Assembly: GCA_016186795.1 (NCBI GenBank)
Contig: JACPKY010000002.1
Coordinates: 604,771 to 668,770, forward strand
Direction: 5' to 3'
DNA length: 64,000 bases
DNA from: Candidatus Gottesmanbacteria bacterium
GTDB lineage: Bacteria; Patescibacteriota; Microgenomatia; 2-02-FULL-39-11
Part shown: positions 24,455 to 29,852 of the stretch, in pieces
How positions within the stretch are numbered: position 1 is the stretch's first letter
How the letters are laid out: the number at the start of each line of letters is the position of its first letter
Position numbers and translations under genes: made by a program
Notes under the pieces: generated by a model
What the model was told of the DNA's origin: nothing
The model's input: only the letters and a program-made list of their open reading frames with translations
Database searches by the model: none

Positions 24455-25080
24455 TGCTTTACGGCAACAATCTTATGAACAATATTAAACGGCCCGAAAT
24501 CTTCACGGGTTGTTTTAAATCCGTATTCATCAAAATATTTTTCGTTATCACGCTCAAGCCGTAAAGAGGTTTGAATACTGACGATTTTAAAAAGAGTTTG
24601 CGCAATTATGTTGCGATCTTTCGGCATTCCGCCGGCAATAATAATTATTTTCCCTCCTTTTTTCAGCACCCGCCGCATTTCCTCTATCGCTTTTCGAATA
24701 TCTGCAATTTCTGCTAAAACAAACGTCATCACAATACAATCAAAGGTACTATCTTTAAAGGGGAGATGGTACACGGATTGATGCAAAATATCGATGTCAT
24801 ACCCTGCTTGTTTTGCTCGCTTCCTTGCCTCATATGCCATCCCGCTGCGAAGTTCAATACCGGTTACGGTATAACCTTTTTTTGCCATCCGAAGCATAAG
24901 TTTCCCAGGTCCGACACCAATTTCTAGAATTGAGGATCCAGTGATATCAGGAAATACACGCTCCTGCCATTTCTCCCACTGTCCAACAGAAAGAAGCTGG
25001 GTAATACCGTCATAAAAAAGAGGGAACGCGTGGTAGGCGCGATAGAAGAGGTCAAAAAGTTTTAAACGGGTCAGTCGCAT
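24451..25080 (-). CDS. class I SAM-dependent methyltransferase
   Basis: Motif I (LEIGVGPGKL). The start was trimmed to MRLTRLKLF to remove a spurious N-terminal extension. Confidence 0.65.
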   Translation of the reverse strand: MRLTRLKLFDLFYRAYHAFPLFYDGITQLLSVGQWEKWQERVFPDITGSSILEIGVGPGKLMLRMAKKGYTVTGIELRSGMAYEARKRAKQAGYDIDILHQSVYHLPFKDSTFDCIVMTFVLAEIADIRKAIEEMRRVLKKGGKIIIIAGGMPKDRNIIAQTLFKIVSIQTSLRLERDNEKYFDEYGFKTTREDFGPFNIVHKIVAVKQ

Positions 25081-25145
25081 AGAAGCGGCTAGAGGCGAGT
25101 ATAGCACCCATTGACAGAGAAAGTAAAGATGTGTATATTCCGGGT

Positions 25146-25208
25146 ATGAATATGAATCTCTCAAACCTTTCACTTCTCCTTCTTGGAGAAGGTGAATTCG
25201 TGGTTTGA
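25146..25208 (+). CDS. leu operon leader peptide (MNMNLSNLSLLLLGEGEFVV)
   Basis: A 20-codon ORF with six Leu codons, including four consecutive (ctt ctc ctt ctt), followed by a terminator abutting the leuA start. Confidence 0.5.
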   Translation: MNMNLSNLSLLLLGEGEFVV

Positions 25209-25270
25209 GAGAATAGAAAAAAACAAACAACTGAATAATAAAATGACCTCTCAAACCAGAGAGGTTTTTT
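25159..25270 (+). promoter_or_regulatory. transcription attenuator of the leu operon
   Basis: Segment 1 is tctcaaacc (25159-25167), segment 2 ggtttgaga (25202-25210) and segment 3 tctcaaacc (25249-25257). The terminator is acctctc-aaacca-gagaggt plus T6 (25246-25270). Segment 2 can pair with either segment 1 or segment 3, the mutually exclusive alternatives of a classic attenuator. Confidence 0.55.
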
Positions 25271-25275
25271 GATGC

Positions 25276-26778
25276 ATGAAAAAACAAAAAATTTTTATCT
25301 TTGATACTACCCTTCGTGATGGCGAGCAAACGCCTGGAGCAAAACTCAATACGAATCAAAAAGTAACACTGGCAAGACAGCTCGAAGTGTTAGGCGTTGA
25401 TGTTATTGAGGCGGGATTTCCAATTTCATCACCTGGTGATTTCCGCTCAGTGGTGGAAGTTTCAAAGGTAATTAAGAAGGCTACAATCTGTGGACTTACC
25501 CGTGCAATACCCAAAGATATCGAGGTTGCGGCTGATGCTCTACGATTTGCCAAACGTCCCCGAATACATACCGGAATTGGTGCATCTGATATCCATATCA
25601 AATATAAATTTAAATCTACCCGCGAAGAAATTCTCGCTCGAGGAATTTCTGCAGTAAAATATGCGAAAAGATTTGTTGGCGATGTAGAATTTTATGCCGA
25701 AGATGCGGGACGAGCAGAGAATGAATTTCTCGCAAGAATGGTTGAGGAGGTGATCAAAGCTGGAGCAACCGTTGTGAATATTCCAGATACAACCGGATAC
25801 TGTTTCCCTGAGGAATTCGGCGCAAAAGTAAAATATCTTTTCGACCATGTGACAAATATCGATCGAGCAATTATTTCTGTCCATTGCCACAATGACATAG
25901 GCCTTGCGACAGCCAATACTATTACCGGGATAGCAAATGGGGCAAGACAAGTGGAAGTAACAGTGAATGGTATCGGAGAACGGGCTGGAAATACTTCCTT
26001 GGAAGAAGTTGTTATGGCTATATATACAAGACGTGAGTATCTCCCCTACCAGACAAATATCAAAACTTCCGAAATCGCCAAAACAAGCAAAATGGTTTCT
26101 CAAATCATGGGAATACCAGTCCAACCCAATAAAGCGATTGTGGGAGCAAATGCATTTGCACATTCATCCGGCATACACCAAGATGGGGTTTTGAAGAGGC
26201 GGGAAAACTACGAAATTATTGATCCAAAAATTGTCGGCTTTGACAAATCGCATATTGTGTTAACTGCAAGATCCGGACGGGCGGCTCTTCGGCACAAGTT
26301 AGAGACGATTGGAATAAAAATGGAGAAAAAAGAACTCGATATGCTCTATGAAAAATTCCTTCGACTTGCAGATATCAAGAAAGAAATCTATGAAGATGAT
26401 TTACGATTTTTGGCAGGTCAAAAAGAAGAAACAAATCACAAAAAAGTAAAACTTGTACTTATCCAAGCAGTGTCAGGGAATAAAAACATTCCAACGGCAA
26501 CAGTACGATTATTAATTAACAGTCAAACCCGAGAGGCAGTAGGTATTGGGGATGGACCAATTGATGCAAGTTTCAAGGCAATCGATGCATGTATTGGGAA
26601 AAAATATTCACTGGAACACTTTATGATTCAGGCTGTTACAGTGGGATCTGATGCTATGGCAAATGTCAATGTGGCACTTAAAAAAGGAAATAAAATATTT
26701 TGGGGGACCGGAACAAATACCGACACGATTGTTGCGGCTGTTCTTTCCTATATTGATGCACTGAATAAATTTCTATAA
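25276..26778 (+). CDS. leuA: 2-isopropylmalate synthase / citramalate synthase family, with C-terminal LeuA_dimer regulatory domain
   Basis: HMGL-like N-terminus ([10 protein letters not shown]) and a C-terminal [13 protein letters not shown] regulatory domain. Confidence 0.8.
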
Positions 26779-26780
26779 TA

Positions 26781-28181
26781 ATGAAACCAAAAACACTTTT
26801 TGAAAAAATCTGGGAATCTCATGTTGTTACGAAAGAAAAAGGTACTCCCTCACTTCTCTATATTGATGCCCATCTTATTCACGAAGTCACCAGCCCTCAA
26901 GCATTTGCGAATCTTCGGAAAAAAAATCTAAACGTACGAAGAACTGATAAAACATTTGCAACCGTTGATCATAACGTTTCCACAACAAGTCAAAGAAATA
27001 TAAAAGATGCGCTTTCCCGAGTGCAGGTAGAAACCTTGGAAAGAAATTGCAAAGATTTTGGAATTGAACTCTTTGGACTTAATAGTCCAAATCAGGGAAT
27101 TGTCCATGTTATTGGACCAGAACTAGGAATAACCAAACCGGGAATGACAATCGTTTGTGGAGATTCCCACACTTCAACCCATGGCGCGTTTGGAACACTC
27201 GCTTTTGGTATTGGAACAACCGAAGTAGAGCATGTACTGGCAACGCAGTGCTTACTCCAACAGCCCATGAAGATCATGGAGGTACGAATTGATGGAACTC
27301 TGGGAAAAGGAGTAACGGCAAAAGATGTTATTTTGACTATACTTTCTAAAATCGGCACAAAAGGGGGAATTGGGTATTGCATTGAATACACAGGATCAAC
27401 AATGCAAAACATGAATATGGAAGGAAGGATGACCATCTGCAATATGAGTATTGAAGGTGGGGCTCGAGCCGGAATGATTGCTCCAGATGAGATTACATTT
27501 GCCTATCTGAAGGGTAGACAGTTTAGTCCTAAACAAGAAAAATGGGAAGAATCTTTGAAGAGATGGAAATCACTTCGTACTGATCCCGATGCACCGTATG
27601 ATAAAACTGTCATCATCGAGGCCAAAAAAATTGCACCGTTAGTTACATGGGGTACTGATCCGTCTACCGGGATTCCGATCCATGAGAAAATACCACACCC
27701 AAACAAAATGCAGTCGAAAGATCAAAAAATAACAAGTGAAAAAGCACTTACCTATATGGCGCTTAAACCAGGGATGAGACTTGAGGGATTCCCTATCGAT
27801 TATGTTTTTATAGGAAGCTGCACGAACGCTAGAATTTCAGATCTTCGAGAGGCGGCAAAAATTATCAAAGGAAAAAAAGTAAAAAACACTGTCACTGCAT
27901 GGGTCGTACCTGGCTCCAGACAAATAAAACGACAAGCAGAAAAAGAAGGATTGGATAAGATATTCCATTCTGCAGGATTCGAGTGGCGATGGTCTGGATG
28001 TAGTGCGTGTATTGCCATGAATGATGACAAAATCCCACCAGGAAAATACTGTATATCAACCAGTAACCGAAATTATGAAGGACGACAAGGACCCGGATCT
28101 CGGACTTTCTTGGCAAGCCCTATTATGGCAGCAGCAGCAGCAATTGAAGGGAAGATTACCGATGTGAGGAATTATTTGTAG
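26781..28181 (+). CDS. leuC: 3-isopropylmalate dehydratase large subunit
   Basis: Aconitase-family Fe-S ligand motifs. Confidence 0.9.
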   Translation: MKPKTLFEKIWESHVVTKEKGTPSLLYIDAHLIHEVTSPQAFANLRKKNLNVRRTDKTFATVDHNVSTTSQRNIKDALSRVQVETLERNCKDFGIELFGLNSPNQGIVHVIGPELGITKPGMTIVCGDSHTSTHGAFGTLAFGIGTTEVEHVLATQCLLQQPMKIMEVRIDGTLGKGVTAKDVILTILSKIGTKGGIGYCIEYTGSTMQNMNMEGRMTICNMSIEGGARAGMIAPDEITFAYLKGRQFSPKQEKWEESLKRWKSLRTDPDAPYDKTVIIEAKKIAPLVTWGTDPSTGIPIHEKIPHPNKMQSKDQKITSEKALTYMALKPGMRLEGFPIDYVFIGSCTNARISDLREAAKIIKGKKVKNTVTAWVVPGSRQIKRQAEKEGLDKIFHSAGFEWRWSGCSACIAMNDDKIPPGKYCISTSNRNYEGRQGPGSRTFLASPIMAAAAAIEGKITDVRNYL

Positions 28182-28185
28182 ACCT

Positions 28186-28782
28186 ATGAAGAAATTTCAT
28201 AAATTATTTTCCACATGTCTTCCAGTTAGAGAAGAAAATATTGACACAGACCAAATAGTGCCTGCTCGATTTTTAAAGGTCACATCGCGGGAAGGGTTTG
28301 GAACGTACCTGTTCTATGATTGGCGATTTGACAAATCCTTCGGCGGTGCTCAGGATAAATCCAATACAAAATGTGTTTTTAATAATCCGAAATATAAAGG
28401 GGCAAAAATTCTCGTTGCAGGAAATAATTTCGGCTGCGGCTCCAGTCGAGAACACGCCGCATGGGCAATTGCCGAATATGGATTTCGAGTTGTGGTCTCC
28501 AGTTCGTTTGGAGACATTTTTTACAATAATGCGTTAAAAAATGGACTGCTGCCAATTAGTGTAAAACCTAAAGAATTGGAAATACTTTTCCAAATAATAG
28601 AAAAAAAATCCCAAACTGAAATTACTGTCGATTTGAAAAAGCAAAAGATCCATACTTTCCATTTCCCGATCGATTCTTTTCGAAAAACCTGCCTTCTTAA
28701 GGGCGTTGACGAGTTAGGGTATATTTTGTCTCACGAGGGTAAAATTAAACAATTTGAACAGAGGCAGAATATCTTTGTATGA
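28186..28782 (+). CDS. leuD: 3-isopropylmalate dehydratase small subunit
   Basis: Aconitase swivel domain; gene order leuC-leuD. Confidence 0.85.
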   Translation: MKKFHKLFSTCLPVREENIDTDQIVPARFLKVTSREGFGTYLFYDWRFDKSFGGAQDKSNTKCVFNNPKYKGAKILVAGNNFGCGSSREHAAWAIAEYGFRVVVSSSFGDIFYNNALKNGLLPISVKPKELEILFQIIEKKSQTEITVDLKKQKIHTFHFPIDSFRKTCLLKGVDELGYILSHEGKIKQFEQRQNIFV

Positions 28783-29852
28783 AAAAAACAATTGCAGTAC
28801 TACCGGGAGATGGAGTTGGACCAGAGATCATCGATCAAGCAGTAAAAGTTTTGCAAAAAGTTGCAAAGATTTATCATCATGAGTTTTCATTTGAATACGG
28901 CTTAATTGGAACAACTGCTATTGAAAAAACAGGTAATCCCTTACCTGATCAAACATTGAAACTTTGCAAAGATTCTGATGCAATTCTTTTTGGAGCAATT
29001 GGAGATCAGAAATATGATAACGACCCGAGTGCAAAAATTCGTCCTGAACAGGGACTTTTAGAACTTCGAAAATCTCTAGCACTCTTTGTAAACATTCGTC
29101 CTATTTTTGTTTTTCCCACACTCATCAATTCTTCACCACTCAAGGCAGAGGTAGTGAAAGATTCCGACTTTATTGTGATACGTGAACTTACCGGCGGAAT
29201 ATATTTTGGGAAACCAAGAATGAGAAAGAATCATGGAAAAACTGCAATTGATACATCGATATATTCGGAATCAGAAATTGAACGAATTGCCCGTGTGGCG
29301 TTTGAGATTTCCCGAAAACGAAATAAGAATGTTGTATCTATAGATAAAGCCAATGTTCTGGAAACTTCCCGCTTATGGAGGGAAACTGTGACGAAAACTG
29401 GGAAAGAATATCCAGACGTAGAATTATCTCATATGTTTGTTGATACTGCTTCCATGCAAATAATAAAAAATCCACAACAATTTGATGTTATTCTTACAGA
29501 AAATATGTTTGGAGATATTCTTACAGACGAAGCATCAGTTATATCCGGATCGATCGGCCTTTTGCCATCAGCATCCATTGGAGAAAGACATGCACTATAT
29601 GAACCCATCCATGGAGCCTATAACAAAGCCGCAGGGAAAAATACTGCAAATCCAATTGCTGCTATTCTTTCTGTTGAGATGATGCTGAAATATAGTTTTC
29701 ATCTGGTAAAAGAATGGAAATGCATCTGGAATGCTGTAGTAAAAACACTGGAGGAGGGATGGAGGACGAAAGATCTTGTGGCAAAAGAAACAGAGAAAGA
29801 AAAAGTCATCGGAACAAAAGAGATGGGAGATAAAATAACTAATAATATCTGA
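28779..29852 (+). CDS. leuB: 3-isopropylmalate dehydrogenase
   Basis: Isocitrate/isopropylmalate dehydrogenase motifs (NMFGDILTDEASVISGSIGLLPSAS). Confidence 0.9.
   Translation: MKKTIAVLPGDGVGPEIIDQAVKVLQKVAKIYHHEFSFEYGLIGTTAIEKTGNPLPDQTLKLCKDSDAILFGAIGDQKYDNDPSAKIRPEQGLLELRKSLALFVNIRPIFVFPTLINSSPLKAEVVKDSDFIVIRELTGGIYFGKPRMRKNHGKTAIDTSIYSESEIERIARVAFEISRKRNKNVVSIDKANVLETSRLWRETVTKTGKEYPDVELSHMFVDTASMQIIKNPQQFDVILTENMFGDILTDEASVISGSIGLLPSASIGERHALYEPIHGAYNKAAGKNTANPIAAILSVEMMLKYSFHLVKEWKCIWNAVVKTLEEGWRTKDLVAKETEKEKVIGTKEMGDKITNNI

Follow-up and report, generated by a model that had tools for sequence, protein, structure and literature searches.

How would a bacterium of the candidate phyla radiation (CPR), a group generally seen as host-dependent and poor in biosynthesis, control the expression of a leucine operon of its own? 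The question is raised by a locus in Candidatus Gottesmanbacteria (assembly GCA_016186795.1, contig JACPKY010000002.1, positions 604,771 to 668,770 of the forward strand; these 64,000 nucleotides are referred to as the window, and positions are numbered within it), where the genes leuA-leuC-leuD-leuB are preceded by a 20-codon open reading frame (ORF) and a series of alternative hairpins. The initial annotation of this DNA had read the leader as a case of ribosome-mediated attenuation, known from the leu and trp operons of enteric bacteria, in a low-GC, small-genome lineage; the lineage is indeed that of Gottesmanbacteria, and the GC content of the window is ~40%. On the strength of the sequence elements, computed structures and comparisons described here, we consider it likely that the element before leuA represents a ribosome-mediated transcription attenuator, which ties expression of leuA-leuC-leuD-leuB to the supply of charged tRNA-Leu.

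The elements picked out in the initial annotation are present exactly as described. The leader ORF (MNMNLSNLSLLLLGEGEFVV) carries four consecutive Leu codons inside a small hairpin, two copies of the 9-mer TCTCAAACC (25159-67 and 25249-57) flank a complement (25202-10) that spans the leader stop codon, and a terminator with a run of six T's ends 5 nt before the leuA ATG. The ORF has six Leu codons in all, every one of them CUY, and these regulatory codons match the product of the operon downstream. Two perfect inverted repeats (11/11 each) with a common middle arm were found with a repeat finder, at 25157-67/25202-12 (pairing 1:2) and 25201-11/25248-58 (pairing 2:3). The proposed logic of 1:2, 2:3 and 3:4 pairings is thereby borne out: region 2 is a partner of either region 1 or region 3, and the antiterminator (2:3) and the terminator (3:4) are mutually exclusive, because region 3 is common to both.

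AT-rich intergenic DNA often contains short ORFs and hairpins, and the arrangement might be a chance ORF beside a constitutive terminator or insulator hairpin, without a regulatory role. We regard the likelihood of this as next to negligible. All three occurrences of the 9-mer in the 64-kb window (both strands) lie in the leu leader, against an average of 0.76 per window in shuffled sequence, where three were reached in 1/100 shuffles. The minimum free energy (MFE) of 25140-25285 is -42.9 kcal/mol, compared with -25.4 +/- 3.7 kcal/mol for 200 dinucleotide shuffles, none of which equalled it (z = -4.7). In addition, a constitutive terminator 5 nt before the first biosynthetic gene would silence the operon. 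The gene upstream of the leader encodes a methyltransferase and is divergent, so the intergenic region of 195 nt must contain the leu promoter. The 1:2 hairpin was also considered as a terminator of this neighbouring gene, and this was rejected, as the gene is transcribed away from the hairpin.

The energy comparison that the initial annotation had proposed gives, for parts folded separately, -29.4 kcal/mol for helix 1:2 including the inner hairpin, -13.8 kcal/mol for the antiterminator helix 2:3 and -11.9 kcal/mol for the terminator 3:4. When the footprint of a ribosome on the Leu run is masked, antiterminator and terminator are isoenergetic (both ~-15.3 kcal/mol), and thus the order of synthesis decides the outcome; 2:3 is complete before region 4 gets transcribed. 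That the outcome is set by the order of synthesis is the accepted working of classical attenuators. The geometry is compatible with a translating ribosome: if its A site is at one of Leu codons 10-13, a ribosome would cover ~25155-25195, that is, region 1 and the inner hairpin, and leave region 2 free, while at the UGA it sits directly on region 2. Within the inner hairpin the Leu run pairs locally, in the fold, with GGAGAAGG (25185-92); this hairpin (25169-25196) may also be a pause hairpin.

The course of events that we infer from these features is as follows. Transcription would start from TTGACA-17-TATATT at the leader AUG or 1-2 bases off, and a ribosome would load on the 5'-proximal AUG, without a Shine-Dalgarno (SD) sequence, and read the 20 codons with their six CUY Leu codons. 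If Leu-tRNA is scarce, the ribosome would stall at codons 10-13 (or at codon 5 or 8) and cover region 1 and the inner hairpin; region 2 (25201-12) could then pair with region 3 (25248-58) once this has been made, the terminator would be blocked, and RNA polymerase would enter leuA, with the leuA SD in region 4 left single-stranded. If Leu is plentiful, the ribosome would get to the UGA within region 2 and mask this region, so that 3:4 folds and, together with the T6 run, stops transcription 3-6 nt short of the leuA AUG. With zero translation, the very stable 1:2 helix would form, again resulting in termination. The positions of the elements involved are given in Table 1.

Table 1. Features of the leu locus and of the second leader, before ilvB, with positions in the 64,000-nt window.
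Feature	Position	Strand	Basis or remark
leu promoter, -35 hexamer TTGACA (predicted)	25111-25116	+	consensus scan, 11/12 matches, 17-nt spacer
leu promoter, -10 hexamer TATATT (predicted)	25134-25139	+	6 nt before leader ATG
leu leader-peptide ORF (leuL-like)	ATG 25146 to TGA 25206-25208	+	20 codons
Region 1, UCUCUCAAACC, 5' arm of anti-antiterminator, leader codons 4-8	25157-25167	+	inverted repeat I2, 11/11, and fold
Additional Leu codons of leu leader (codons 5 and 8)	25158-60, 25167-69	+
Inner hairpin extending helix 1:2, Leu run in 5' arm and loop	25169-25196	+	fold
Regulatory Leu run CUU CUC CUU CUU (codons 10-13)	25173-25184	+
Region 2, UGGUUUGAGAGA, partner of region 1 or region 3, contains stop UGA 25206-08	25201-25212	+	inverted repeats I2 and I3
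Spacer separating region 2 from region 3, A-rich, unstructured	25213-25244	+
Intrinsic terminator (3:4), stem 25245-52/25259-66 (8 bp), loop AAACCA (6 nt), T-run 25265-25270	25245-25270	+
Region 3, CUCUCAAACCA, 3' arm of antiterminator (with region 2) or part of terminator 5' arm and loop	25248-25258	+	inverted repeat I3, 11/11
Putative leuA SD, GAGGU, in terminator 3' arm	25261-25265	+	10 nt before ATG
leuA	25276-26778	+	NCBIfam NF002086, 726 bits, above equivalog cut-off
leuC	26781-28181	+	NCBIfam NF004016, 773 bits, above equivalog cut-off
leuD	28186-28782	+	NCBIfam NF002458, 254 bits, above equivalog cut-off
leuB	28779-29852	+	TIGR00169, 481 bits, above equivalog cut-off
ilv promoter, TTGACA, 17-nt spacer, TATAGT	46315-10, 46292-87	-	then 10 nt to leader start
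ilv leader ORF, MIKNNLIILSVIVLAIVQGYSWEVIKARIKK, rich in Leu, Ile and Val	ATG 46276 to TAA 46183-81	-
ilv region 2, CUUGGGAGGU	46215-06	-	complementary to region 3
ilv region 3, ACCUCUCAAG	46160-51	-
ilv terminator, ACCTCTC-aagaaac-GAGAGGT and T6		-
ilvB, real ATG	46129	-	length agrees with NCBI protein

From the terminator abutting the leuA start codon the initial annotation had concluded that control is coupled or the initiation context unusual. The remark on an unusual context holds in part, in that the putative SD of leuA lies inside the terminator 3' arm; the coupling stands as a plausible layer of translational control on top of termination, the SD being predicted to be free in the antiterminated conformation and paired in the terminator conformation. 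The output might even be mainly translational, with the 3:4 hairpin hiding the SD, the ORF and 2:3 controlling initiation at leuA, and the T-run terminating little. The place of GAGGU so near the ATG, repeated before ilvB, would suit this, as would the hairpin 0-6 nt from the start codon in many relatives and the presence of 3:4 in the MFE fold of the full leader, by which a refolded read-through transcript would hide the SD. A mainly translational output is unlikely, however, as the stem contains GC and is directly followed by 5-8 T's in all loci, a signature of intrinsic termination that SD masking does not need. Many relatives of class B (defined below) have a 3' arm that is not SD-like (GGCGGG), and in some relatives (L002, L005, L033 and L104) the terminator stands 70-134 nt before leuA, too far for masking of the ribosome-binding site. 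Given relatives of these two kinds, the translational layer cannot be general. The two modes are compatible, and transcription attenuation and translational control may act together. The U-run of the terminator (GUUUUUU) is also complementary to the A-run of leuA codons 2-3 (AAAAAAC), the two being separated by the start codon (inverted repeat I4, 25264-25285), and similar U-run/ATG/A-rich starts are seen in relatives. This may be chance, LeuA beginning with Lys codons, or a further structure at the initiation site.

How the leader ORF could be translated is a question in itself, since no SD sequence was found for it. Its AUG is predicted to lie at +1 from the position of the -10 box (transcription start at ~25145-25147, with +1 on the A of the AUG). 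An AUG without an SD, 6 nt after the -10 box, would probably be translated in a leaderless or near-leaderless manner. The arrangement TTGACA-17/18-TAnnnT is also present in relatives, where the -10 box ends 6-14 nt 5' of the leader start codon in 26/32 leu loci (median 10), corresponding to a 5' untranslated region (UTR) of ~0-7 nt. A similar start context is found at other genes of the window: among its long ORFs, 11/43 have a strong -10-like hexamer 5-13 nt 5' of the ATG and no SD, compared with 4% among all ATGs (p = 7e-7; examples are the gene starts at 139, 2858, 3614, 9564(-), 17673, 23296(-), 32379, 51931(-) and 55755(-)), while genes internal to operons more often carry SDs of the GGAGG type. 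Leaderless or very short-leader mRNAs thus seem to be common in this genome, and the leu leader ORF appears to resemble a normal first gene in its start context. The lack of an SD would also fit the idea that the hairpins are bound by a protein or another trans-acting factor, the sensor being something else than the mini-ORF. This we hold to be very unlikely; the likeness of the start-codon context to that of real genes of the genome argues against it, and no regulator gene is linked to the leader, the divergent gene being the methyltransferase gene.

To see how far the arrangement extends, loci were collected by LeuA scans of genome and metagenome collections, which returned 160 of them. The closest LeuA sequences (72-79% identical) are from metagenome-assembled genomes (MAGs) of Gottesmanbacteria, Roizmanbacteria, Woesebacteria and Patescibacteria, in which three genes upstream of the leu leader are syntenic. 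The same layout stands before the leu operon in ~32 distinct Microgenomates loci (Gottesmanbacteria-type MAGs and metagenomes), located via their Leu-run ORFs: a sigma-70-like promoter, an ORF of 17-29 codons with LLL or LLLL (for example MRNLTLSSLNLLLGEDF, MKNLFLLNLFLLLPGEF, MCKFTLLNLNELLLLGEAF, MVLQIDNQSLALLLSAGFRR and MKIFSISNSLLLLTPTRAGA), a stop codon at or beside region 2, an antiterminator and a terminator. The initial annotation had left it to be tested whether the Leu run and the duplicated 9-mer are conserved in relatives; conservation is seen for the Leu run, for a region 2 close to the stop codon and for the terminator. A terminator with 5-8 T's is found in every relative examined, and the spacers between regions 2 and 3 are A-rich in relatives as well. 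Helix sequences fall into several classes, among them class A with UCUCAAACC/GGUUUGAGAG/CUCUC-GAGAG and class B with CCGCC/GGCGG. As the helices are of unlike sequence between the classes, it is the architecture that is conserved, beyond sequence.

In 27/28 loci region 2 falls between -13 and +20 nt relative to the leader stop codon, and the 2:3 duplex is better than dinucleotide shuffles (p <= 0.05) in 17/28. The window's own duplex reached p = 0.086 in this test, with conservative region boundaries, a value that gives a chance origin some room; the ~32 conserved loci speak against chance, as does the way the element moves with the start of the operon. In three Gottesmanbacteria loci (L008, L018 and L031) one to three extra genes stand before leuA, and the class A leader and terminator are found at the new operon start. 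In Roizmanbacteria-type loci with the order ilvB-ilvN-leuA (L010, L011, L016, L017 and L035), no leader was found directly before leuA, the operon start being outside the DNA covered. In an alignment of 13 class A sequences, helix 1:2 is 90-98% paired and 2:3 is 94% paired, and 85% of cells are paired in the inner hairpin (helix 4). The high sequence conservation of class A, with little covariation, could reflect a sequence-specific site for a trans-acting factor; against this, classes with unrelated helices retain the ORF, the Leu run, the position of the stop codon and the terminator geometry.

Some loci carry variants of the leader. Leaders with mixed codons precede leuA in L012 (106-210), L038 (2795-2900) and L090 (1343-1470) (MKKSLSLITLILITHKG, MQINKFKNNQLLLILTIP and MSKLYTILLGLIINIILIVPI, respectively), which points to multivalent forms of this attenuator, with Leu/Ile(/Thr/Val) codons. 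A Gottesmanbacteria-like LeuA (68-74% identity) is also encoded in several MAGs whose title is 'uncultured Gammaproteobacteria bacterium' (binchicken TPA assemblies; for example L001, L002, L032, L040 and L045). Among these, L002 and L032 have a class A leader, L002 also has the syntenic upstream genes, L040 and L045 have variant leaders of other kinds, and in L001 leuA is not directly preceded by a leader. The Gammaproteobacteria labels of these MAGs look wrong. About 1.1 kb before the leu leader, L002 (1624-1760) and L004 (1698-1810) have a mini-ORF with two Trp codons (MKVGLWKWVLE and MKVELWKW..., respectively) followed by a hairpin and a T-run; this may be a trp-type leader, or the hairpin may be the terminator of a convergent gene. 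At the start of the divergent methyltransferase gene (25073-25090, minus strand), the motif AGTCGCAT(A)GAAGCGGCT is kept in the class A relatives L002, L003, L004 and L032. On the mRNA strand, a 6-bp hairpin (AGCCGC/GCGACU) can be formed from it in which the AUG lies where loop and stem meet; the motif may thus be a small element for translational control at the mRNA's 5' end.

A second leader-peptide attenuator of identical build is found in the same window, on the minus strand before ilvB (46315-46130; Table 1). It too has a 1:2 hairpin, its fold has z = -5.2, and the ilvB junction is built like that of leuA, with the same GAGGT and the same 10-nt gap to the ATG. The element is also present in Gottesmanbacteria relatives (L165-L169; leaders MTARHGNEINILSIIVLVIGQGKMREA in L166 and MVGQIALIITILSILILVIGRGFTWEALEKQRTKN in L169), with GTG-start variants in L165 and L168, and it stands before ilvD where ilvD is the first gene. 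A contig with an identical ilvB occurs in the Logan assembly of SRR12113430. Compensatory changes are seen in the ilv terminators of relatives, from CCUCUC/GAGAGG to CCUCCC/GGGAGG. The regulatory codons of the two leaders track the pathway, with Leu codons before leuA and a mixture of Leu, Ile and Val codons before ilvB; no other single observation argues as strongly for reading of the ORFs by ribosomes. A trans-acting factor fits poorly with an ilv copy in which the codons have switched while the architecture is retained. The core CUCUCAA/GAGAGG is common to the leu and ilv elements, which may be paralogues.

The ilv operon also encodes a fusion protein of 613-624 aa (43918-42044, minus strand; also in L165, L166, L168 and L169), in which a pyridoxal phosphate-dependent domain (Pfam PALP) is joined to a C-terminal LeuA allosteric/dimerisation domain (PF08502). 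Its top NCBIfam matches are to threonine synthase, just below the cut-off, and it occupies the position expected for ilvA, followed by a RidA gene in L168 and L169. A feedback-regulated analogue of threonine dehydratase is one possible identity for it.

Attenuation by a translated leader is classically known from the enterobacterial leu operon and, in E. coli and Salmonella, from the trp, his, thr and ilv operons. The Gottesmanbacteria element is like the enterobacterial leuL attenuator in its leader ORF with four consecutive Leu codons, its 1:2, 2:3 and 3:4 pairings, its stop codon at region 2, its intrinsic terminator before leuA and the leu operon downstream. It is unlike it in that there is no detectable sequence or covariance-model similarity, the leader lacks an SD and the ORF starts about at the predicted +1, the terminator adjoins leuA and contains its SD, and the host is a CPR bacterium. 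The codons differ as well: E. coli leuL uses the rare CUA, whereas CUU and CUC are the commonest Leu codons of this genome (42% and 13.5% of Leu codons, respectively, in the long ORFs of the window).

Known families of leader RNA were sought with Rfam. A scan of 24900-25500 (E <= 10) gave no match to T-box (RF00230), Leu_leader (RF00512) or the leu/phe leader (RF01743), and a scan of the whole window gave nothing at gathering level, T-box, riboswitches and curated leader families included. Phe_leader reached at best 16.6-17.9 bits in the first of these searches, on the terminator, compared with a threshold of 55. The matches were only noise (microRNA and small RNA models on hairpins), and T-box, riboswitch and known leader families were rejected; none of the T-box or riboswitch covariance models, which the initial annotation had set against attenuation, fits the region better. 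A T-box likewise senses tRNA charging and switches between terminator and antiterminator before amino-acid genes. At ~125 nt the leu element is too short for one, and its design centres on an ORF that is probably translated.

The ilv-leu leaders of Firmicutes depend on an SD and often stand alongside CodY or a T-box. Leaders of this kind (Staphylococcus aureus, PMC5794164; Listeria monocytogenes, PMC5864092; Lactococcus, RF01743) share with the present element a peptide rich in Leu or branched-chain amino acids (BCAA), a terminator/antiterminator switch, BCAA genes downstream and a low-GC host. Compared through the Rfam scan alone, they gave no match here, and in the window leu and ilv are separate operons with one attenuator each. 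Attenuators with a leaderless sensing ORF are known from actinobacteria. In Corynebacterium glutamicum ilvBNC the sensing ORF is leaderless, and a three-hairpin model has been put forward in which hairpin 1 is an anti-antiterminator and can also block initiation (PMC11857589); the leaderless polycysteine short ORFs of mycobacteria are a further case (bioRxiv 10.1101/834739). The Gottesmanbacteria element differs from both in phylum, sequence and amino-acid specificity, and its leaderless state is predicted from the promoter-to-ATG distance. The actinobacterial LEU element (PMC1262725) also has an ORF with a Leu run before leuA and RNA pairings that involve the leuA SD. It is a pseudoknot whose base stem pairs the Leu run with the SD, has no obvious terminator, and its mechanism is disputed, with a trans-acting factor among the proposals (PMC1262725). 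The element described here, in contrast, has a canonical terminator and antiterminator, and its Leu run pairs locally (by fold, not by a pseudoknot search). In the literature we found no report of attenuators, leader peptides, leaderless translation or leucine/BCAA genes in CPR, Patescibacteria, Microgenomates or Gottesmanbacteria, which is weak evidence, as coverage of subscription journals was poor.

Several points weigh against a ribosome-mediated transcription attenuator at leuA. The attenuator-like leaders of ilvB and leuA in Streptomyces coelicolor are reviewed as having codon mutants that do not behave as those of classical attenuators (PMC1262725), and it is because of this failure in mutational tests that our confidence is not set higher. 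The antiterminator is not thermodynamically preferred over the terminator and closes a loop of 36 nt, so kinetic control is needed. As the leu leader has no SD, its translation would depend on the predicted leaderless start, and those relatives whose -10 box ends 9-14 nt before the ATG would have a 5' UTR of 2-7 nt, not zero. The count of related loci is biased, since they were located via Leu-run ORFs, and the loci, those in the duplex-versus-shuffle test included, are phylogenetically non-independent. In addition, covariation in the class A alignment was not above shuffle controls. The sequences are too alike for such a signal, and the terminator loop was misaligned by MAFFT; thus, for structural support, we rely on how the classes compare with one another and on the duplex-versus-shuffle test.

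Taken together, the locus is most likely a classical leucine attenuator, of known mechanism, in Candidatus Gottesmanbacteria and other Microgenomates, and the leaderless leader ORF and the SD within the terminator arm are probably features typical of the lineage. The mechanism is a textbook one, and nothing new is learned about attenuation itself; the value of the finding lies in CPR physiology and translation. A Gottesmanbacteria genome has complete leu and ilv operons, apparently regulated via tRNA charging through the coupling of transcription and translation. Leaderless starts seem likely for the leader ORFs and for a quarter of the genes of the window, pointing to a habit of initiation that has hardly been examined in CPR bacteria. 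The leu and ilv leader families could be used as covariance models for BCAA prototrophy and operon starts in CPR bins. A wider claim, for and against which the balance seems to us even, is that Microgenomates carry undescribed and probably paralogous families of leu and ilv attenuators, with a CUCUCAA/GAGAGG core, leaderless or near-leaderless initiation, a terminator 3' arm that doubles as the SD of the first gene, and combined transcriptional and translational control. If so, this would be, to our knowledge, the first amino-acid-sensing cis-regulatory RNA system described in CPR, and it would make these ultra-small bacteria BCAA prototrophs under regulation, dependent on the coupling of transcription and translation.

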